Shown here one piece after another: positions 559-49,664 of a stretch of DNA of 64,000 nucleotides. Source of the stretch: a virus (taxonomy: Duplodnaviria; Caudoviricetes); the IMG/VR virus record IMGVR_UViG_3300026116_000040, positions 1,149 through 65,148 of that record. The stretch is one strand, 5' to 3'. The notes below the pieces were generated by a model. That model had not been told where the DNA came from and ran no database searches. It worked only from the letters and a program-made list of their open reading frames with translations. How positions within the stretch are numbered: position 1 is the first letter of the stretch; each line of letters starts with the position of its first letter. A program made the translations under genes and the position numbers.

Positions 559-1104
559 TTATTTTTTTACCCAATTTACAGGGTTCAACCTTTCCTTTAT
601 CACAATTATAATATCTTTGCTTATCAAACCGAATTCGCTAACATTTTCAATTAAAGACACAAAATAGGTGCCAGAGAATCCGCCATAAACAACGGAAGGA
701 AGGAAATAGTAAACAGCGTTAGACTTAGCCAAGTTCCAGCTAATACTTAAAACGAATAAAGCCAACGGCATGGCTACGAAAATCCGGGGGAACCTAGACG
801 AGGAGAACCTTCTGTTTATAATGCTTTGTAATTTATCCGGCGGAATGGTTGCTTTTTGATATCTTAACAAGCAGGAAGCCTTTACTGCTAAAGTTACCCC
901 TAACACCCAGTCTCCCAACATGAGTATAAGTAAGGTATATATAGCTGCCGACGAGTCCCAAATGTATGATGTAATAAACGAGGTGAATGACAAGAGAAAT
1001 ATTAACCATATATTAATTATTGTGTTTTTTAACCCAAGAAAGGTGGTTAAAAAATCATCAAAACTTATATATCCTAACAATGCCTTTTGTTCGTTTTTCA
1101 ACAT
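559..1104 (-). CDS. Holin-like multi-pass membrane protein
   Basis: 3-4 hydrophobic segments; LxLxDWVLGV...SLIENV pattern resembles phage holin family 4-type proteins. Confidence 0.55.
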   Translation of the reverse strand: MLKNEQKALLGYISFDDFLTTFLGLKNTIINIWLIFLLSFTSFITSYIWDSSAAIYTLLILMLGDWVLGVTLAVKASCLLRYQKATIPPDKLQSIINRRFSSSRFPRIFVAMPLALFVLSISWNLAKSNAVYYFLPSVVYGGFSGTYFVSLIENVSEFGLISKDIIIVIKERLNPVNWVKK

Positions 1105-7409: not shown

Positions 7410-8148
7410 CTTTTAAGTTGTTTATATATTATCACTATTGCTGCTATCATCCCTATTGTTATTACCGCTGTCAAGAGGGGTTTTTTTTTACTTCAGCAAC
7501 CGTTGCGATTGCGCCTGACTGAATCATGTTGTATAAAGAATCGACGACGCCGTGTGCTTTATTATAACCCTCTTGGACAACACCATTATTGAAATTCGTT
7601 CCCCTTCCTGCATTTATTTGAACAGCTACTTTAGTTGCTGTGGTTGTGTCTTTTATAGAATTTATATCAGATACTCCAAATTTTTTAAACGAACCAGCTT
7701 TCAAGCCTGCATTTAATTCAGTTGCAAAAAAAGCCGCCGCTGCATCTGCCGCTACATGAGGATCGTTTAATGAATCAGGATTGTTTACTAAATCTCTCCC
7801 TATCAGCTTCCCGAATTTATCATATTCGGACTTGAATGTTATTTGATTAAACCCTCGTCCCCTATATTTGTAGCCCTCATTGCTTGCGTTACCCCCCTTT
7901 CCTCCATATTTGAAGTCTCCCAAAGCAATAGGATTGCTTGCCAACCTTGCACTGTCTGCATCCGACGTTTGCGGCCATACCCTTTTAATGTTGGCAACGG
8001 AATAATTCAAATTTTCCGATTGCGGAACAAAATTCGATTCTTTCGAGATGGTAGCCAATATTCCTGCCTGAACAGCCTTATTAGTCACACCAAACTTGTT
8101 TAACGAGTCTGTTATTAATTGTATATTTTTTAATTGCTCTGAGGTCAT
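7406..8148 (-). CDS. GH19-type lysozyme; 0-frame stop at 7471, -1 frame adds a TM anchor ending at 7406
   Basis: ENLNYS and YKYRGRGFNQIT GH19 motifs; A9 run at 7481-7489; -1 frame reads PLLTAVITIGMIAAIVIIYKQLKR and ends in an ATGA overlap with the next gene. Confidence 0.8.
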
Positions 8149-16122: not shown

Positions 16123-16139
16123 CGTATCTTACTTTTTAG

Positions 16140-16214
16140 TAGCGGAAGCTGGATTTGAACCAGCGATCTACGGATTATGAAACCGTCGGGATAGACCAAC
16201 TTCCCCATTCCGCA
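16140..16214 (-). tRNA. trnM: tRNA-Met(CAT), initiator-like
   Basis: Cloverleaf with TTCATAA loop, GGTTCAAATCC T-arm and unpaired 1:72. Confidence 0.85.
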
Positions 16215-45161: not shown

Positions 45162-45211
45162 TATTTACATATCGTTCGGTTCCGACATGTGCAGTGATAC
45201 GTAAGTATTTT

Positions 45212-45246
45212 AAACCCTGGAGAGCAATCTTCGGGGTTTTTTATTT
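45212..45246 (+). terminator. Intrinsic terminator insulating the tRNA array
   Basis: AAACCCTGGAGA-GCAA-TCTTCGGGGTTTTTT. Confidence 0.85.
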
Positions 45247-45283
45247 TATAAAAAAATAAATTTGTAATTAATAAAATTAGGTG

Positions 45284-45291
45284 TATATTTG
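45284..45291 (+). promoter_or_regulatory. Bacteroidota -7 promoter element, tRNA operon 1
   Basis: TATATTTG 4 nt before the leader ATG. Confidence 0.8.
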
Positions 45292-45295
45292 CATC

Positions 45296-45370
45296 ATGAA
45301 AACAATAACTCTACATCAACAACCGCAGCAACGTCGCCCGAAAAGCGATAAATGGGGTTATTGTGTTTAG
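45296..45370 (+). CDS. Attenuator leader peptide 1 (His/Gln/Pro/Arg)
   Basis: MKTITLHQQPQQRRPKSDKWGYCV, upstream of tRNA-Pro, Gln, His and Arg(ACG). Confidence 0.85.
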   Translation: MKTITLHQQPQQRRPKSDKWGYCV

Positions 45371-45393
45371 GGTATTTAAACATATAAGTAAGG

Positions 45394-45435
45394 AAACTAA
45401 CCCCGACATTGATTTGTTCGGGGTTTTTAGTTTTT
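45394..45435 (+). terminator. Attenuator terminator 1
   Basis: AACCCCGA...TCGGGGTT plus T-tract; GGGGTTA at 45354-45360 is an alternative partner of TAACCCC. Confidence 0.85.
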
Positions 45436-45439
45436 ATAT

Positions 45440-45515
45440 CTTGCGGTATAGGAGTCTGGTTTATCTAACCTCACTTGGAATGAGGAGTACGTGGGTTCAA
45501 ATCCCACTCGCAAGA
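45440..45515 (+). tRNA. trnP: tRNA-Pro(TGG)
   Basis: CCTCA-CTTGGAA-TGAGG anticodon arm, GGTTCAAATCC. Confidence 0.88.
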
Positions 45516-45596
45516 CGAGAGAGGAGACATTGGTTCGAGTCCAATCTGCGGGGCCAAGCCCTGCGGTAGTAACATATAGGAAATACGCCTCTCGTG
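45516..45596 (+). ncRNA. Circularly permuted tRNA-like RNA (YrlA/Y RNA-like architecture)
   Basis: Order: GAGAGG, T-arm ATTGG-TTCGAGT-CCAAT, CTGCGGG-G-CCA, linker, CCTGCGG, D-arm, CCTCTC. Confidence 0.65.
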
Positions 45597-45602
45597 TTTT
45601 AC

Positions 45603-45675
45603 TTTCGGGTCGTCTAGCGGCAGGATTTTGTGCTTTGAACACAAAGACGGTTTGGTTCGAATCCACCCCCGAAAA
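45603..45675 (+). tRNA. trnQ: tRNA-Gln(TTG)
   Basis: TTGTG-CTTTGAA-CACAA; acceptor TTTCGGG/CCCGAAA. Confidence 0.85.
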
Positions 45676-45677
45676 CT

Positions 45678-45747
45678 GTGTTATTAGCATATTGGTAATG
45701 TATTCGCCTGTGAAGCGAGTGAACAGGGTTCGATTCCCGATAACGTG
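45678..45747 (+). tRNA. trnH: tRNA-His(GTG), 3' acceptor strand interrupted by an insertion
   Basis: TTCGC-CTGTGAA-GCGAG; the perfect 3' strand ATAAC|ACC is split, with the remainder at 46219-46221. Confidence 0.75.
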
Positions 45748-46218
45748 GTGCAGCTACCAGAAGGGCGGGATTTTAATCACATAATAAACTTAGAAAGATG
45801 AATAACCAATTAACGCTACAACTGTCAGAAGAGGTACAAAGCCCCGCCTTTTTGGTAGGTGCTGTTACCACCAGTGCTTCTGTCTATGATGAATTCGAGT
45901 GGATAAACAATAATAACTTTGCAAAGGATGCACACAAGCATACTTCATGTGATTGGCAATTATCAAAGAATGAAATTTGGCTTGGCAATACGAGCGGAAA
46001 CAAGCCCTGGGAAAAGGGAGTAGATATTCCAAAAGACTATGATCATTTTAAGACTATTCGATTGGGCCATCAGGCATATTGCATTAAAGGTAAGCCGTTG
46101 AGTAGAGATTACTGTCTGCCTTTGATAATTGACAAATCAGAAGAGCAAGAGTATGATAGAATTTATATGAAGAAAATGTCCGCCTATGCAAGGTAGCGTC
46201 CTTAGCATTGGTGGTAAC
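45745..46218 (-). mobile_element. attC-like gene cassette inserted in tRNA-His
   Basis: GTTACCACCAGTGCT (45864-45878) is inversely repeated at 46204-46218 (14/15); long imperfect palindrome 45741-45866; TAAC at both junctions. Confidence 0.65.
45798..46196 (+). CDS. Cassette-borne hypothetical protein
   Basis: 132-aa ORF starting inside the palindrome loop. Confidence 0.6.
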   Translation: MNNQLTLQLSEEVQSPAFLVGAVTTSASVYDEFEWINNNNFAKDAHKHTSCDWQLSKNEIWLGNTSGNKPWEKGVDIPKDYDHFKTIRLGHQAYCIKGKPLSRDYCLPLIIDKSEEQEYDRIYMKKMSAYAR

Positions 46219-46226
46219 ACCCTTAT

Positions 46227-46298
46227 GTTTCATTAGGCTAAGGGACAAACCATTTGGCTACGAACCAAATATTACACGTTCGAATCGTGTATGAAACA
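46227..46298 (+). tRNA. trnR: tRNA-Arg(ACG)
   Basis: TTTGG-CTACGAA-CCAAA; acceptor GTTTCAT/ATGAAAC. Confidence 0.88.
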
Positions 46299-46309
46299 CT
46301 TAATATTTG

Positions 46310-46382
46310 TGCGAAAGAGTGGTACCGAGCCACTATCTTCGGATTTTCAGTCCGCTGCATAGACCATCTTTGCTACTTCCGC
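46310..46382 (-). tRNA. trnF: tRNA-Phe(GAA)
   Basis: CGGA-CTGAAAA-TCCG; atypical T-loop CTCGGTA. Confidence 0.8.
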
Positions 46383-46387
46383 TTTTG

Positions 46388-46458
46388 CGTTCTCGAATGG
46401 AATCGAACCATTATTAGCTGATTAACAGTCAGTCGTACTACCGTTGTACTACAAGAAC
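46388..46458 (-). tRNA. trnN: tRNA-Asn(GTT)
   Basis: CTGA-CTGTTAA-TCAG; GGTTCGATTCC. Confidence 0.88.
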
Positions 46459-46907
46459 TTTTTTATATACTCTTTATAGTACCCTAATTGGATAACAGTT
46501 TTAATTGCATGGCAATTAGCGCATAAAATTTCACATTTTCTTATTTCTGTTTTTACTGATTCAATAGAATTTCTATCTGCAATTAATGCTGCTACACTTG
46601 ATATTTTACCACTATTATCCTTGTGGTCGAATTGTAAAACAAATGGATTTTTATTTCCGCACTCTTTACAGCCACATAGTCTTTTATATCTTAAAGAAAG
46701 TTCTATTAAATATAGTCTATGATTTTTATCACATTCCTTTTTCTTGTTAACCCTTTTAAATGCCCTAGCATTACTTTTATCTTTTTGTCCTGTCCCACAA
46801 TGAAAGGCTACAGTTCCTTTGGAACATTTTAATTTCCCCGAAATTTTGTTATAAGAAAGTCCCCCCTTTCTTAATTTCAATATTTTTGCTCCAAGTCCTT
46901 TATTCAT
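46449..46907 (-). CDS. HNH endonuclease with N-terminal HTH
   Basis: CKECG...LQFDH...KCEILCANCH; own TATATTTG promoter at 46912-46919. Confidence 0.85.
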   Translation of the reverse strand: MNKGLGAKILKLRKGGLSYNKISGKLKCSKGTVAFHCGTGQKDKSNARAFKRVNKKKECDKNHRLYLIELSLRYKRLCGCKECGNKNPFVLQFDHKDNSGKISSVAALIADRNSIESVKTEIRKCEILCANCHAIKTVIQLGYYKEYIKKFL

Positions 46908-46972
46908 ACTGCAAATATATAAATAAAGGTTCAAATAAAAAAATGTTTTTTAAATCAATTGAACTATATTTG

Positions 46973-47046
46973 CGGGGTTAACGGAAATCGAATCCGTAAT
47001 CTCTTCCGTGACAGGGAAGCGTCATGCGCCAATATGCTGTAACCCC
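46973..47046 (-). tRNA. trnD: tRNA-Asp(GTC)
   Basis: CTTCC-CTGTCAC-GGAAG; acceptor GGGGTTA/TAACCCC. Confidence 0.85.
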
Positions 47047-47048
47047 GT

Positions 47049-47086
47049 AAAACAAAAAACCCTCAAGCTTTTAGCTCAAGGGTTTT
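47049..47086 (-). terminator. Attenuator terminator 2
   Basis: Minus strand AAACCCTTGAGC-TAAAA-GCTTGAGGGTTTTTT; CAAGG/GCTCA just after the leader stop can pair with the 5' arm. Confidence 0.85.
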
Positions 47087-47110
47087 GACAATATCATTCC
47101 ATGAGCCTTG

Positions 47111-47155
47111 TTAGGTTCTATTATCAAAATCGAAATTAAAATTTATTGTTTTCAT
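47111..47155 (-). CDS. Attenuator leader peptide 2 (Asn/Phe/Asp)
   Basis: MKTINFNFDFDNRT; TATATTTG-CACC-ATG leaderless start; upstream of tRNA-Asp, Asn and Phe. Confidence 0.85.
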   Translation of the reverse strand: MKTINFNFDFDNRT

Positions 47156-47179
47156 GGTGCAAATATAACTATTTTTTTG

Positions 47180-47251
47180 TCTCTGTGAAAAGAATCGAAC
47201 TTTTATTTATTGTTTAGAAGACAACTGTACTATCCATTGTACGACACAGAG
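47180..47251 (-). tRNA. trnR: tRNA-Arg(TCT)
   Basis: GTTGT-CTTCTAA-ACAAT; acceptor CTCTGTG/CACAGAG. Confidence 0.85.
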
Positions 47252-47259
47252 TTTATTTG

Positions 47260-47330
47260 TGTCCCTGAACAGAATCGAACTGTTGTCTTCCGGTTAAAAG
47301 CCGGAAGCTCTACCATTGAGCTACAAGGAC
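47260..47330 (-). tRNA. trnK: tRNA-Lys(TTT)
   Basis: TCCGG-CTTTTAA-CCGGA. Confidence 0.9.
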
Positions 47331-47400
47331 AAAACTTTATCTTCTCTTTCTCTTATGAGAAAAAGCAGGTTTTCGTTTTATTTTCCTTGTAGCATTCATG

Positions 47401-47471
47401 TTTCGCAAGATGGAATCGAACCACCGTAAACTGGATGTAAACCAATCACTCTACCATTGAGATATTGCGAA
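47401..47471 (-). tRNA. trnV: tRNA-Val(TAC)
   Basis: ATTGG-TTTACAT-CCAGT. Confidence 0.85.
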
Positions 47472-47477
47472 ATAAAG

Positions 47478-47547
47478 TGGACAGCGTGGGAATCGAACCC
47501 ATACAATCTGATTGCAAATCAGTTGGACTGCCGTTGTCATCGCGCCC
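47478..47547 (-). tRNA. trnA: tRNA-Ala(TGC)
   Basis: CTGA-TTTGCAA-TCAG; G3:U70; irregular acceptor/D region. Confidence 0.75.
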
Positions 47548-47553
47548 ATAATG

Positions 47554-47626
47554 TGTACCCTAAAGGGGTCGAACCTTTATCCCCTTTCTTATGAGGAAAG
47601 TGCTTTACCAATTAAGCTAAAGGAAC
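47554..47626 (-). tRNA. tRNA(CAT), probably Ile2 (lysidine), otherwise Met
   Basis: CTTTC-CTCATAA-GAAAG; third CAT tRNA of the window. Confidence 0.8.
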
Positions 47627-47630
47627 ATAG

Positions 47631-47701
47631 AGTACACAGAAAGAATCGAACTTTCTACTTTTGTTTTGCAGACAAATCTCAATCCATTTGAGTTTATGTA
47701 C
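47631..47701 (-). tRNA. trnC: tRNA-Cys(GCA)
   Basis: TTTGT-CTGCAAA-ACAAA; U73. Confidence 0.85.
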
Positions 47702-47706
47702 TTGTG

Positions 47707-47780
47707 AGCAGATAGCGAGAATCGAACTCGCTCTATTCCAGTTTGGAAGACTGGCGCACCACCAACTATGCGTTATCTGC
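47707..47780 (-). tRNA. trnG: tRNA-Gly(TCC)
   Basis: CCAGT-CTTCCAA-ACTGG; U73. Confidence 0.87.
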
Positions 47781-47789
47781 TTATTATCG

Positions 47790-47862
47790 TATTCGGTACG
47801 GGCATCGAACCCGTATCTGCAAAGTGAAAGTTTGCTATCCTGACCATTTAGAAGAACCGAAC
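47790..47862 (-). tRNA. trnE: tRNA-Glu(TTC)
   Basis: GCAAA-CTTTCAC-TTTGC. Confidence 0.87.
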
Positions 47863-47911
47863 ATTTCGTCGGTCTCCTCACTTAATCTGTTTTTCATTTT
47901 CATTTTTTAAG

Positions 47912-47983
47912 TTGGAATAAAAGGACTTGAACCTTTAGCCTTCGACGTATCAGGTCGCTGCTCCACCATTGAGCTATACTCCA
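47912..47983 (-). tRNA. trnI: tRNA-Ile(GAT)
   Basis: CGAC-CTGATAC-GTCG. Confidence 0.87.
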
Positions 47984-47989
47984 ATATTG

Positions 47990-48060
47990 TTGCGGAGAAG
48001 AGAATCGAACTCTTATCTGAGGCTTATGAGGCCCCCGTGCTACCGTTACACCACCACGCA
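47990..48060 (-). tRNA. trnM: tRNA-Met(CAT)
   Basis: GGGGC-CTCATAA-GCCTC. Confidence 0.82.
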
Positions 48061-48066
48061 ATTTTG

Positions 48067-48138
48067 AGCTTAGATTCGGAACTGACCCGAAAATTGATGC
48101 TTACAAGGCAACTGTTTTTCCCGTTAAACTATCCAAGC
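48067..48138 (-). tRNA. trnT: tRNA-Thr(TGT)
   Basis: TGC-CTTGTAA-GCA; atypical T-loop GTCAGTT. Confidence 0.78.
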
Positions 48139-48143
48139 TTAAG

Positions 48144-48215
48144 CACACCCTCTTTGAATCGAACAAAGTCCTTCGGTTTTGGAGACCGATTGGCTACCAT
48201 TAGCCCAAGATGCGT
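48144..48215 (-). tRNA. trnW: tRNA-Trp(CCA)
   Basis: TCGGT-CTCCAAA-ACCGA; G73. Confidence 0.83.
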
Positions 48216-48217
48216 AT

Positions 48218-48250
48218 AAAATAAAAAACCCCGATTTTTGGTCGAGGCTT
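48218..48250 (-). terminator. Attenuator terminator 4
   Basis: Minus strand GCCTCGA-CCAAAAA-TCGGGGT-TTTTT; CGGGGT at the leader end duplicates the 3' arm. Confidence 0.82.
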
Positions 48251-48276
48251 ACAATTTATATTTTTATAAATTTACT

Positions 48277-48369
48277 TCACCCCGTTATTTTAAATTTCTC
48301 AAACATGGCAATCCCAACACACCATTTTGTTGCGTTTGTTCTCGTGCCTATATTTGTAATTAGTTTCAT
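48277..48369 (-). CDS. Attenuator leader peptide 4 (Trp/Thr/Met/Ile/Glu/Gly/Cys/Ala/Val/Lys/Arg)
   Basis: MKLITNIGTRTNATKWCVGIAMFEKFKITG; contains all 11 amino acids of the downstream 12-tRNA operon. Confidence 0.8.
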   Translation of the reverse strand: MKLITNIGTRTNATKWCVGIAMFEKFKITG

Positions 48370-48398
48370 TGAAAATAGTATTGTTTTAAATATTTCGA

Positions 48399-48447
48399 CA
48401 AATATATGAATAATTGTTTTATATATCCAAATTTATTTTTACATTTG
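48399..48447. promoter_or_regulatory. Back-to-back Bacteroidota promoters for tRNA operons 3 and 4
   Basis: CAAATATA at 48399-48406 (minus) and TACATTTG at 48440-48447 (plus). Confidence 0.8.
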
Positions 48448-48451
48448 TACC

Positions 48452-48520
48452 ATGAAAACACAAAAATCATATAGCCTGTCTTTAAGTTATTCGTTGAGTA
48501 AACAAGAGGCATTCTATTGA
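48452..48520 (+). CDS. Attenuator leader peptide 3 (Ser/Tyr/Leu)
   Basis: MKTQKSYSLSLSYSLSKQEAFY, upstream of tRNA-Leu, Tyr, Ser, Ser and Leu. Confidence 0.87.
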   Translation: MKTQKSYSLSLSYSLSKQEAFY

Positions 48521-48538
48521 TTATACTGAAATAGATAC

Positions 48539-48579
48539 AAAAAAGCCTCTCGAATTTAATTGGGAGGCTTTTTTTATTT
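48539..48579 (+). terminator. Attenuator terminator 3
   Basis: AAAAGCCTCTCGA...TTGGGAGGCTTTTTTT; AGAGGC at 48505-48510 is an alternative partner of GCCTCT. Confidence 0.87.
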
Positions 48580-48653
48580 GCAGCAATGGTGAAACTGGTA
48601 AACACACAGGACTTAAAATCCTGACGCTTTGGGTTCGATTCCCAATTGCTGCA
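48580..48653 (+). tRNA. trnL: tRNA-Leu(TAA), short variable loop
   Basis: CAGGA-CTTAAAA-TCCTG; 5-nt variable region. Confidence 0.88.
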
Positions 48654-48659
48654 CTAAAT

Positions 48660-48733
48660 GGGTTGTTCATTGCTAACAGGTAAGCATTCGGTCTGTAACA
48701 CCGCTAATAGAGGTTCGATTCCTTTACACCCCA
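48660..48733 (+). tRNA. trnY: tRNA-Tyr(GTA), short variable loop
   Basis: CGGT-CTGTAAC-ACCG; ~4-nt variable region. Confidence 0.82.
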
Positions 48734-48738
48734 CATAC

Positions 48739-48824
48739 GGAAGATTAAACAGAAAGGCTCTGTAACCGCCTGCTAAGCGAGTTGTCCTGTAAAAAGGGAT
48801 GGATTTCGAATATTCAGTCTTCCG
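48739..48824 (+). tRNA. trnS: tRNA-Ser(GCT)
   Basis: CGC-CTGCTAA-GCG; long variable arm; G73. Confidence 0.8.
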
Positions 48825-48827
48825 TTT

Positions 48828-48921
48828 GGAAAGTAAAGCAGCTACATTGGAGTGGCGACTAGTCTTGAAAACTAGGTATCGGCGTAAAAAACTGATTGGA
48901 GGTCGGGTCTTCTGCTTTCCG
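48828..48921 (+). tRNA. trnS: tRNA-Ser(TGA)
   Basis: CTAGT-CTTGAAA-ACTAG; long variable arm; G73; atypical T-loop. Confidence 0.8.
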
Positions 48922-48926
48922 CAAAT

Positions 48927-49000
48927 GCCCAATTGGCGAAATTGGTAAACGCGCTACTCTTAGAAAGTAGATTTTACAGGTTCGACTCCTGTATTGGGCA
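48927..49000 (+). tRNA. trnL: tRNA-Leu(TAG), short variable loop
   Basis: CTACT-CTTAGAA-AGTAG; 5-nt variable region. Confidence 0.88.
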
Positions 49001-49664
49001 CAATTATAGCGTTCTTGTCCAACCCTTTAAATTTGTCATTTATCGTCTTCCTTTGGACATCAACATACTCTACACCCCATTGGTATGTCTTGTTTATTTT
49101 GCTCAGTCTTTTTTCATACATCTTATGCCGGCTGTAAACATAGTCGGGAGAAATGTACTTATAATGTAGTAATGGAACGGTGAATGGACTGTAAATAATA
49201 TTACCAATAGGATTTGCGGTATGGCAACCTGGCAAATAATTTATTTCTTGGATTTGATTGGGTCTAAAAAAACAAAGTTTGCTATACATTGAGTTAGGAA
49301 CGCCCAAACGCGAAGGTGGCGGACCAATCATATCGTAGCCTTTCGTTTTTACGATGGATGTATTTTTTAAGTCGGCGTTTACCGGCAACTCTAAAAATTC
49401 ATCAATGTCAACTACGCACACCCAGTCCGCTTTGCTTTTCTTCCAACAGCTGTTTTTTATTTTAAGATACAAATCATCCCGTATTTCATCTTGTGAATTA
49501 TAATCGATCAGCGTGCATCCAGCAGCATTTATTATTTCACGGGAATTGTCGATAGACCGGTTATCGAAAATGGTGATGTTGGCCCCCATAGATTGATAAT
49601 GCTTTATGAAGTGGGGCAGTAAGAACGCTTCATTGTAACAGATACTAAATACGTCGATGTTCAT
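48960..49664 (-). CDS. GT2-like glycosyltransferase
   Basis: YNEAFLLPHFIKHY, FDNRSID, DWVCVVDIDEFL; 3' end overlaps tRNA-Leu antisense. Confidence 0.85.
   Translation of the reverse strand: MNIDVFSICYNEAFLLPHFIKHYQSMGANITIFDNRSIDNSREIINAAGCTLIDYNSQDEIRDDLYLKIKNSCWKKSKADWVCVVDIDEFLELPVNADLKNTSIVKTKGYDMIGPPPSRLGVPNSMYSKLCFFRPNQIQEINYLPGCHTANPIGNIIYSPFTVPLLHYKYISPDYVYSRHKMYEKRLSKINKTYQWGVEYVDVQRKTINDKFKGLDKNAIIVPNTGVEPVKSTF

Follow-up and report, generated by a model that had tools for sequence, protein, structure and literature searches.

Leader-peptide attenuators in enterobacteria sense either a single amino acid, as in the trp, his, leu, and pheA leaders, or more than one: the multivalent thr leader senses Thr and Ile, and the ilvGMEDA and ilvBN leaders sense Ile, Val, and Leu. 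The Escherichia coli pheST attenuator, which is cellular, controls phenylalanyl-transfer RNA (tRNA) synthetase and senses one amino acid. T-box elements, which control synthetase, transporter, and biosynthesis genes, each recognize a single uncharged tRNA by direct RNA-RNA contact and need no ribosome, and in ermC-type drug-sensing leaders the stall is caused by the drug together with the nascent peptide. The role of the tRNAs that phages carry has been debated for decades, with codon compensation, the substitution of phage tRNAs for degraded host tRNAs, and evasion of tRNA-cutting defenses as the proposals; to our knowledge, the regulation of phage tRNA genes is almost unexplored. In this study, we have analyzed a stretch of 64,000 nucleotides of caudoviricete DNA (positions 1,149 to 65,148 of the IMG/VR record IMGVR_UViG_3300026116_000040), here called the window, which is nearly the whole of that 65,148-base record (CheckV completeness, about one third). 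The finding under study, termed unit 4, consists of a leader, a terminator, and a 12-tRNA array on the minus strand of the window. On the basis of its sequence, unit 4 is probably a multivalent leader-peptide (ribosome-mediated) transcription attenuator ahead of a 12-tRNA operon, one of four in a tRNA island that spans positions 45,440 to 49,001.

The -7 box, the leader open reading frame (ORF), the terminator, and the tRNAs of unit 4 all lie on one strand. The elements that precede the array are as follows:

48428-48431, minus strand: TTTG, a candidate -33 element, 21 nucleotides upstream of the -7 box
48399-48406, minus strand: -7 box, which fits the Bacteroidota sigma-A consensus TAnnTTTG
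48369-48277, minus strand: leader ORF, 30 codons plus TGA
48301-48356, minus strand: predicted hairpin inside the ORF, codons 5 to 23, from minimum-free-energy folds
48279-48284, minus strand: putative 5' strand of the anti-terminator, which overlaps the final two sense codons and the T of the TGA stop
48253-48272, minus strand: small A/T hairpin inside the anti-terminator pairing, from folds of the truncated transcript and of the forced anti-terminator state
48226-48250, minus strand: intrinsic terminator hairpin, 9 pairs, 4 of them G-C, with a loop of 7
48215-48225, minus strand: T-run of the terminator, ending just before tRNA-Trp

The consensus -33/-7 promoter pair is quoted in the available text of PMC6847099. 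According to the available portions of PMC6847099 and PMC9723704, the -7 box of Flavobacterium lies at -12 to -5 and the transcription start site 4 to 5 nucleotides after the box; for unit 4, a start near 48394 and a 5' untranslated region of about 25 nucleotides are predicted. The terminator hairpin (-9.3 to -9.8 kcal/mol) lies 11 nucleotides ahead of tRNA-Trp. The hexamer at the stop codon (48284-48279) is repeated in the 3' arm of the terminator (48233-48228), a duplication that a first-pass annotation of this DNA had already pointed out, and its complement is present in the 5' arm (48248-48243). The two alternative structures are nearly isoenergetic, with -29.7 kcal/mol for the terminator state versus -29.4 kcal/mol for the forced anti-terminator state, a gap of 0.3.

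This anatomy suggests the following switch. Host RNA polymerase would initiate at the TAnnTTTG promoter, and a ribosome would translate the 30-codon leader, in which each amino acid of the downstream tRNAs has one codon or more; the predicted hairpin at codons 5 to 23 would be melted by the translating ribosome. If decoding is smooth, the ribosome would reach the stop codon and cover 48284-48279, the terminator (48250-48226) would form, and transcription would end before tRNA-Trp. If the ribosome stalls early for lack of any cognate charged tRNA, 48284-48279 would stay free and pair with the 5' arm of the terminator; the terminator would be blocked by this pairing, and polymerase would read into the array. 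The phage would in this manner supply the tRNA block on demand and turn it off again when supply recovers. What we infer from the nucleotide sequence is that the leader is translated, that its translation is coupled to transcription, which way the switch acts, and what triggers it physiologically. Clues for leader-peptide attenuation upstream of amino acid operons have been reported in Flavobacterium (available text of PMC9723704), which makes the attenuator reading plausible for this host group.

With the thr and ilv leaders, the units described here share a short ORF near the promoter that is rich in regulatory codons, an intrinsic terminator between this ORF and the genes under control, a predicted alternative pairing that could be masked by a ribosome at the end of the ORF, and more than one amino acid per leader. 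Unlike those leaders, they would regulate tRNA genes instead of biosynthetic enzymes, and their valency is 3 to 17 as opposed to 1 to 3; in addition, most regulatory codons appear one or a few times each and not in long single-residue runs, most of the units appear to be leaderless, the setting is a Bacteroidota phage, and no unit of the island belongs to an Rfam leader family. Two subthreshold Rfam matches were obtained, one to Trp_leader (RF00513) at 48221-48307 on the minus strand, exactly on unit 4 (21.4 bits; E = 0.5; gathering score, 41), and one to Phe_leader (RF01859) at 48459-48577 on the plus strand, on the neighboring unit 2 (28 bits; E = 0.1; gathering score, 55); these are likenesses in shape only, and the units are not members of these families. 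The pheST system is similar in that leader-peptide attenuation acts on a component of the translation apparatus for the sensed amino acid, and it differs in its target (a synthetase), its single input, and its cellular genome. In ermC-type leaders, a ribosome stalled on a short ORF likewise remodels the downstream RNA structure; however, that stall does not arise from cognate tRNA supply, and the composition of the leader is unrelated to the regulated gene. The best-supported interpretation is that the control would work like the thr and ilv multivalent attenuators.

The array occupies the minus strand from 48213 to 47179 and comprises 11 solid tRNA genes and one marginal gene. ARAGORN at its default setting returned 10 of them (Trp, Thr, CAT, Ile-gat, Glu, Gly, CAT, Val, Lys, and Arg-tct). 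In order of transcription, and found by both default ARAGORN and Rfam unless stated otherwise, the genes are as follows:

48143-48213, minus strand: tRNA-Trp (cca), Rfam 34.5 bits
48066-48138, minus strand: tRNA-Thr (tgt)
47989-48060, minus strand: tRNA with anticodon cat (Met or Ile2)
47911-47983, minus strand: tRNA-Ile (gat)
47789-47862, minus strand: tRNA-Glu (ttc)
47706-47780, minus strand: tRNA-Gly (tcc)
47630-47701, minus strand: tRNA-Cys (gca), Rfam 53.3 bits (47631-47701), ARAGORN at a lower threshold
47553-47626, minus strand: second tRNA with anticodon cat (Met or Ile2)
47479-47547, minus strand: marginal tRNA-Ala (tgc), ARAGORN at a lower threshold only, Rfam 25.4 bits (47478-47547), E = 0.037
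47400-47471, minus strand: tRNA-Val (tac)
47259-47330, minus strand: tRNA-Lys (ttt)
47179-47251, minus strand: tRNA-Arg (tct), the final gene of the array

The first-pass annotation had described a 12-tRNA operon; 11 of these genes stand firm, and the tRNA-Ala is marginal, with a score below the Rfam gathering score of 29. Far from the island, directly after a 385-residue ORF, there is a single tRNA with anticodon cat (16139-16214, minus strand) that has no leader or terminator of its own.

The composition of the leader matches this array. With Met1 counted, 25 of its 30 residues are drawn from the 11-amino-acid set of its own array, all 11 amino acids served by the tRNAs behind it are present, and the peptide contains no Asp, His, Pro, Gln, Ser, or Tyr. 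Its codons include ATT twice, ATA twice, AGA as the sole Arg codon, and one internal ATG. Each of these features of residue content, and the presence of both Ile codons and of AGA, had been claimed in the first-pass annotation, and our counts agree with it throughout. After Met1, 24 of 29 residues are cognate versus 16.4 expected (P = 0.0027). Among 1,000,000 random 29-residue peptides with the composition of this phage, the fraction with all ten non-Met amino acids of the set was 0.014, the fraction with at least 24 cognate residues was 0.0027, and the fraction that met both was 0.0002 (about 2 in 10,000). All-ten coverage was found in only 1 of the 212 ATG-initiated ORFs of 25 to 35 residues in the six frames of the window, and that ORF is the unit 4 leader. 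A comparison with random ORFs had been proposed together with the original claim, and by these two measures the leader is distinguishable from them. Each amino acid of the set is first met between codons 2 and 24; Glu, at codon 24, is a doubtful sensor input, being close to the anti-terminator strand by the estimated ribosome footprint. When four DNA runs were compared over the leader, only one short variant was found, in run X2. The variant contig (window 48297-48408) has nine differences across the leader and the 5' untranslated region; within the ORF, two changes are silent and three replace a residue, the frame stays open, and two of the three replacements exchange one cognate residue for another.

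The same match recurs in the sister units. The island is made up of four units of common anatomy, and each of its four tRNA blocks stands behind a short matching ORF followed by a terminator:

Leader from 45296, plus strand: unit 1, with tRNAs Pro, Gln, His, and Arg-acg
Leader 48452-48520, plus strand: unit 2, with tRNAs Leu, Tyr, Ser, Ser, and Leu
Leader 47155-47111, minus strand: unit 3, 14 codons, predicted to be leaderless, with tRNAs Asp, Asn, and Phe
47167-47160, minus strand: -7 box of unit 3
47086-47056, minus strand: terminator of unit 3
Leader 48369-48277, minus strand: unit 4, with tRNAs for the other eleven amino acids, including Arg-tct

Cognate residues make up 9 of 23, 12 of 21, and 8 of 13 residues in the leaders of units 1, 2, and 3, respectively (P = 1e-3 to 9e-5), and the enrichment of any window leader in the set of another unit is at most 0.92-fold. 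When all 24 pairings of leaders with arrays were scored by the excess of cognate residues, the true pairing scored 27.7 and the best of the 23 wrong pairings scored 12.3. The -7 box is separated from the ATG by exactly 4 nucleotides in units 1 to 3; given the published geometry of the start site, the messenger RNAs (mRNAs) of these units would begin at the start codon. Folds of units 1 and 2 contain an additional hairpin farther upstream, in which the regulatory codons are base-paired to the anti-terminator strand; in these models, this is the classical four-segment layout. Unit 3 begins 11 nucleotides past tRNA-Arg, and polymerase leaving the 12-tRNA array would encounter the terminator of unit 3 before any other. 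Units 2 and 4 diverge from a single 366-nucleotide spacer.

Several other features of the island were recorded. A 132-residue ORF (45798-46196, plus strand) between tRNA-His and tRNA-Arg of unit 1 has 53 homologues, up to 99% identical, in many metagenomes; among five closer relatives, the similarity ends at the ORF borders, and none of their contigs carries tRNAs. This ORF resembles a mobile cassette that has inserted into the array. It was rejected as a synteny anchor because no fetched locus with a homologue holds a tRNA island. A 161-residue ORF (46449-46934, minus strand) between tRNA-Asp and tRNA-Asn of unit 3 has an HNH-like Cys/His motif, identified by eye; homing endonucleases adjoining tRNA arrays are noted in the available text of PMC8421152. 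The 86-nucleotide gap between tRNA-Pro and tRNA-Gln (45517-45602, plus strand) yielded no tRNA call at normal thresholds, only a weak ARAGORN hit that overlaps tRNA-Gln. For the proteins that flank the island, no relative of the 233-residue protein on the left was found in viral contigs, and the 234-residue protein on the right had three hits only, at 33% identity.

Beyond the window, 17 further units from 11 other phage sources share the design of leader, terminator, and tRNA block. The sources are eight IMG/VR contigs (designated L167, L204, L207, L228, L244, L265, L020, and L024), the Cellulophaga phages Calle_2 and phi4:1, and Maribacter phage Panino; phi38:1 and phi40:1 accompany Calle_2 at 96% identity. 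These relatives were reached by a promoter-plus-start motif search (L167 and, in a second scan, L204, L207, L228, L244, and L265) or, for the cultured phages, by tRNA similarity. Among the matches listed outside the window's own record, the first scan, with a 16-base motif, gave none that led into a tRNA array; two of its loci, L020 and L024, hold units elsewhere in the locus. In coliphage T5 (L299) and the crAss-like phage cr112_1 (L297), whose listings were read by eye, no such unit was seen.

Leader composition covaries with tRNA content across these unrelated phages. L167 is an unrelated 13-kilobase contig with two units, whose capsid protein is closest to those of Flavobacterium phages (30% identity) and which has only 56 nucleotides of sequence in common with the window, in the promoter and start region. 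Its first leader precedes Pro, Glu, Tyr, Gln, Ser, Leu, Arg-cct, Phe, and Ser tRNAs. Its second, unit B, precedes fourteen tRNAs that include Asn, Asp, and His, and the leader holds all three of these amino acids; in contrast, the array of unit 4 has no Asn, Asp, or His tRNA, and its leader has neither Asp nor His. In Calle_2, phi4:1, and Panino, the tRNAs are split into three blocks, each behind a short ORF and a terminator:

First block of the cultured phages: Pro, Glu, Gln, His, Leu, and Arg
Second block of the cultured phages: Tyr, Ser, Asn, Trp, Phe, and Cys
Third block of the cultured phages: Ala, Lys, Ile, Gly, Met, Asp, Thr, Val, and Arg

In the cores of these ORFs, 9 to 16 cognate residues follow one another without interruption. 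The most multivalent units seen are those of L020 and L024. The 42-codon L020 leader (7589-7717, reverse strand) has 23 tRNAs behind it and holds 16 of the 17 amino acids of its array; the 42-codon L024 leader (661-789, reverse strand) has 22 tRNAs behind it and holds 17 of 17. Ala and Asp are missing from the arrays and the leaders of both.

Some of the leader ORFs of the cultured phages are annotated as hypothetical proteins (Panino CDS0063; phi4:1 gp075 and gp076; phi38:1 gp066), and others are unannotated. Such annotations would fit the view that the small ORFs encode functional microproteins unrelated to regulation. However, what is conserved across the phages is composition relative to the adjoining tRNAs and not peptide sequence, the lengths vary from 14 to 42 residues, and all of the ORFs end 18 to 49 nucleotides before a terminator. 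We regard a microprotein function as the least probable of the explanations considered here.

Other elements were seen near these units. In the uncultured huge phage LR756502 (642 kilobases; L298), a 27-codon ORF (7685-7768) with a core rich in Ile, Gly, Ala, and Val and a strong terminator lies ahead of tRNAs Ile, Gly, Gly, Gly, Ala, and Ala; it is a possible further unit and is not counted here. Calle_2, phi38:1, and Panino have in common a conserved ORF of 48 to 49 residues (L180 3654-3800, L183 448-594, and L181 5269-5418) that is hydrophobic at the N terminus and immediately precedes the leader of the Ala/Lys/Ile/Gly-type block. Between the first Calle_2 leader and tRNA-Lys there is an 88-nucleotide element (L180 3997-4084) that ARAGORN reports as tRNA-like with an odd anticodon loop; owing to this element, the unit is the only one with a terminator-to-first-tRNA spacing of 111 nucleotides.

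The association was quantified over 21 nonredundant units, the 4 of the window and the 17 others, with peptides and tRNA sets read automatically from the stored loci by coordinates. Duplicates were excluded (L183 and L189, which are phi38:1 and almost identical to Calle_2; L206, identical to L204; L229, L284, and L286, identical to L228; and L001 to L003, the window's record), as was L234, in which the motif and ORF are present and for which the pipeline defined no unit. The tRNA sets were taken from ARAGORN at one lowered threshold, which gave doubtful calls for Val-aac (L244), Asp-atc (Panino), and Gln (an undetermined tRNA of Calle_2) and missed the tRNA-Ala and one tRNA-Ser of the window, an omission that works against the hypothesis. 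An amino acid with a tRNA in the array was present in the leader in 154 of 157 pairs, the misses being Met twice and Trp once, and an amino acid without a tRNA in the array was present in 124 of 263 (odds ratio, 57; Fisher P = 1.5e-32); for the 17 nonwindow units alone, the values were 134/137 versus 99/203. Cognate residues numbered 365 of 554 versus 220.5 expected, and none of 100,000 shuffles of the set labels among units reached the observed excess. The small units use only 3 to 6 amino acids and track the partition of each phage. Glu, for example, is in the leader of all seven eye-read units whose array contains tRNA-Glu, and the two Pro/Gln/His/Arg-type leaders without tRNA-Glu (unit 1 of the window and L265) contain no Glu.

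These data bear on the simplest alternative, in which the leader is a chance ORF, the hairpin and T-run serve as a plain terminator, insulator, or RNA-processing signal, and transcription that leaks through constitutively supplies the tRNAs. Short ORFs are abundant in A+T-rich DNA, the pairing score of unit 4 alone is not significant (0.12), and no RNA run is listed with the stretch, all of which would suit this alternative. On the other hand, coverage and enrichment coincide by chance in only about 2 of 10,000 peptides, the leaders of all four island units match their own sets, the coverage and the label shuffles over 21 units point the same way, and the 366-nucleotide spacer has room for promoters only upstream of both terminators, so that the tRNA-bound transcripts must pass these terminators. 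A chance ORF is already disfavored, and we consider it very unlikely. In each part that sequence can test, the attenuator proposed in the first-pass annotation is supported: by the composition of the leader, the match in the sister units, the leaders of other phages that follow the partition of their tRNAs, and the nearly equal fold energies. In the multi-input OR gate put forward in that annotation, each of the 11 inputs would have to act by itself.

The geometry of the units is also regular. A rule-based terminator was found in 20 of the 21 units, and in the remaining one (Calle unit 3) a hairpin and T-run were identified by eye. In the 20 units scored, the distance from the stop codon to the terminator is 18 to 28 nucleotides in 19 (whole range, 18 to 49), the distance from the terminator to the first tRNA is 7 to 24 nucleotides in 19, and the best pairing partner of the terminator 5' arm lies in the last 45 nucleotides of the ORF or no more than 13 nucleotides past the stop codon, again in 19. 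The anti-terminator pairing was equaled by at most 4% of shuffles in 15 of the 20 units (200 mononucleotide shuffles per unit, not dinucleotide preserving). The ATG lies exactly 4 nucleotides after the -7 box in at least 12 of the 21 units; with the ATG at the published position of the transcription start, ribosome loading would be tied to transcription initiation.

Choice between a terminator and an anti-terminator gated by the state of specific tRNAs is also the logic of T-boxes, and it could be proposed that the units are RNA-only, T-box-like sensors that bind uncharged tRNA, with the ORF incidental. However, T-boxes sense by RNA contact with one tRNA each, and one RNA could not specify 11 tRNAs. 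There was no match to a T-box or other riboswitch in the window at the gathering score and none at E values of 1 or less over 45200-49100. The leaders, at 45 to 130 nucleotides, are too short for a T-box fold, and the signal resides in the amino acid composition of the frame and not in a conserved RNA, since L167 and the window have only the promoter and start region in common. We give this explanation hardly any weight.

Several observations weigh against the proposal that unit 4 is a leader-peptide attenuator. Its anti-terminator is short, with 6 pairs that include 2 G-U pairs, and 12% of shuffles pair equally well; of the 20 terminators scored, that of unit 4 is the least stable (-9.8 kcal/mol). 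One of its 12 tRNAs, the tRNA-Ala, falls below the gathering score, and among the RNA runs looked up, none was listed as containing the stretch. Tight coupling of transcription and translation in Bacteroidota is an assumption of the proposal. Five of the 30 codons are noncognate (Leu, Asn twice, and Phe twice) and belong to other units; therefore, a shortage of Leu, Asn, or Phe tRNA would act on unit 4 as well, and the sensor would be imperfectly specific. For the set of 21 units, the background composition used for all phages was that of the window, which is an approximation, and units of the same type in related marine phages are not independent; in a reduced set of 12 units, one per partition type, the counts were 86/87 versus 72/153. 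At the level of codons, cognate four-box codons end in A or G in 62 of 111 cases versus a background of 52% (P = 0.23), although the window leaders alone gave 13 of 17 (P = 0.035). Codon families of Arg, Leu, and Ser match in 37 of 39 cases versus 36 of 87, a comparison that is not independent of the amino acid match, and in arrays with a single Arg family, 12 leader Arg codons were matched and 7 mismatched by our own tally. The resolution of such a sensor would at best be the tRNA family.

The same observations are relevant to a second kind of translation-coupled switch, a real one that senses general translation capacity (slow-down, host shut-off, or ribosome antibiotics) or that has the opposite sign, with efficient translation leading to read-through. 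The largest leaders sample 11 to 17 amino acids and come near to a generic test track, the choice of third-position codons is unmatched to the anticodons, and the unit 4 leader includes the five noncognate codons. There is also a published precedent in Anabaena PCC 7120, whose silent trn operon of 26 tRNA genes is induced by translational stress, a general signal, through the repressor TrcR (available text of PMC8421152 and PMC10272220). This is the nearest published logic found, an accessory tRNA array that is off and is switched on when translation is impaired. Unlike the units described here, it relies on a ribbon-helix-helix DNA-binding repressor at the promoter, and its array is cellular, plasmid borne, and not matched codon by codon; in the available text of PMC8421152, the terms leader peptide, attenuation, and terminator occur zero times. 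A generic sensor would need no match between leader and array, yet the small units track the partition of their phages. Moreover, a stop codon 18 to 28 nucleotides before the terminator, with the pairing partner at the end of the ORF, is the geometry of stall-induced read-through and not that of a ribosome that blocks a terminator. We consider a general-capacity or opposite-sign switch unlikely, although it is more credible than the other alternatives.

A literature search found no leader peptide or attenuator described ahead of tRNA genes, within a coverage that leaves out most subscription journals and the older papers on the T5 and T4 tRNA regions; the papers on Calle and phi38:1 mention tRNAs only in passing in their available text. 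It is possible, although we put it forward only tentatively, that Bacteroidota phages carry a demand-driven tRNA circuit in which every tRNA block stands behind a leader that tests exactly those tRNAs; this would be the first instance of ribosome-mediated attenuation acting on tRNA genes, with as many as 17 inputs per leader. A block would come on when host tRNAs run short, through anticodon-nuclease cleavage, host shut-off, or the codon demand of late genes, and would go off once the phage tRNAs restore decoding. The design occurs in cultured phage-host pairs (Cellulophaga phages phi38:1/Calle and phi4:1 and Maribacter phage Panino) and is therefore testable now; infection transcriptomes of Cellulophaga baltica with phi38:1 have already been published (PMC5335546, available text).

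If this interpretation is correct, leader-peptide attenuation would extend from amino acid operons to tRNA genes at a far higher valency, leaderless mRNAs would lock translation to the start of transcription, and the units would offer a small, naturally occurring part with which the supply of individual tRNAs could be sensed. The phage would gauge which tRNAs are limiting, block by block, and answer with the matching genes, and the evolutionary argument about why phages carry tRNAs would become a testable circuit.

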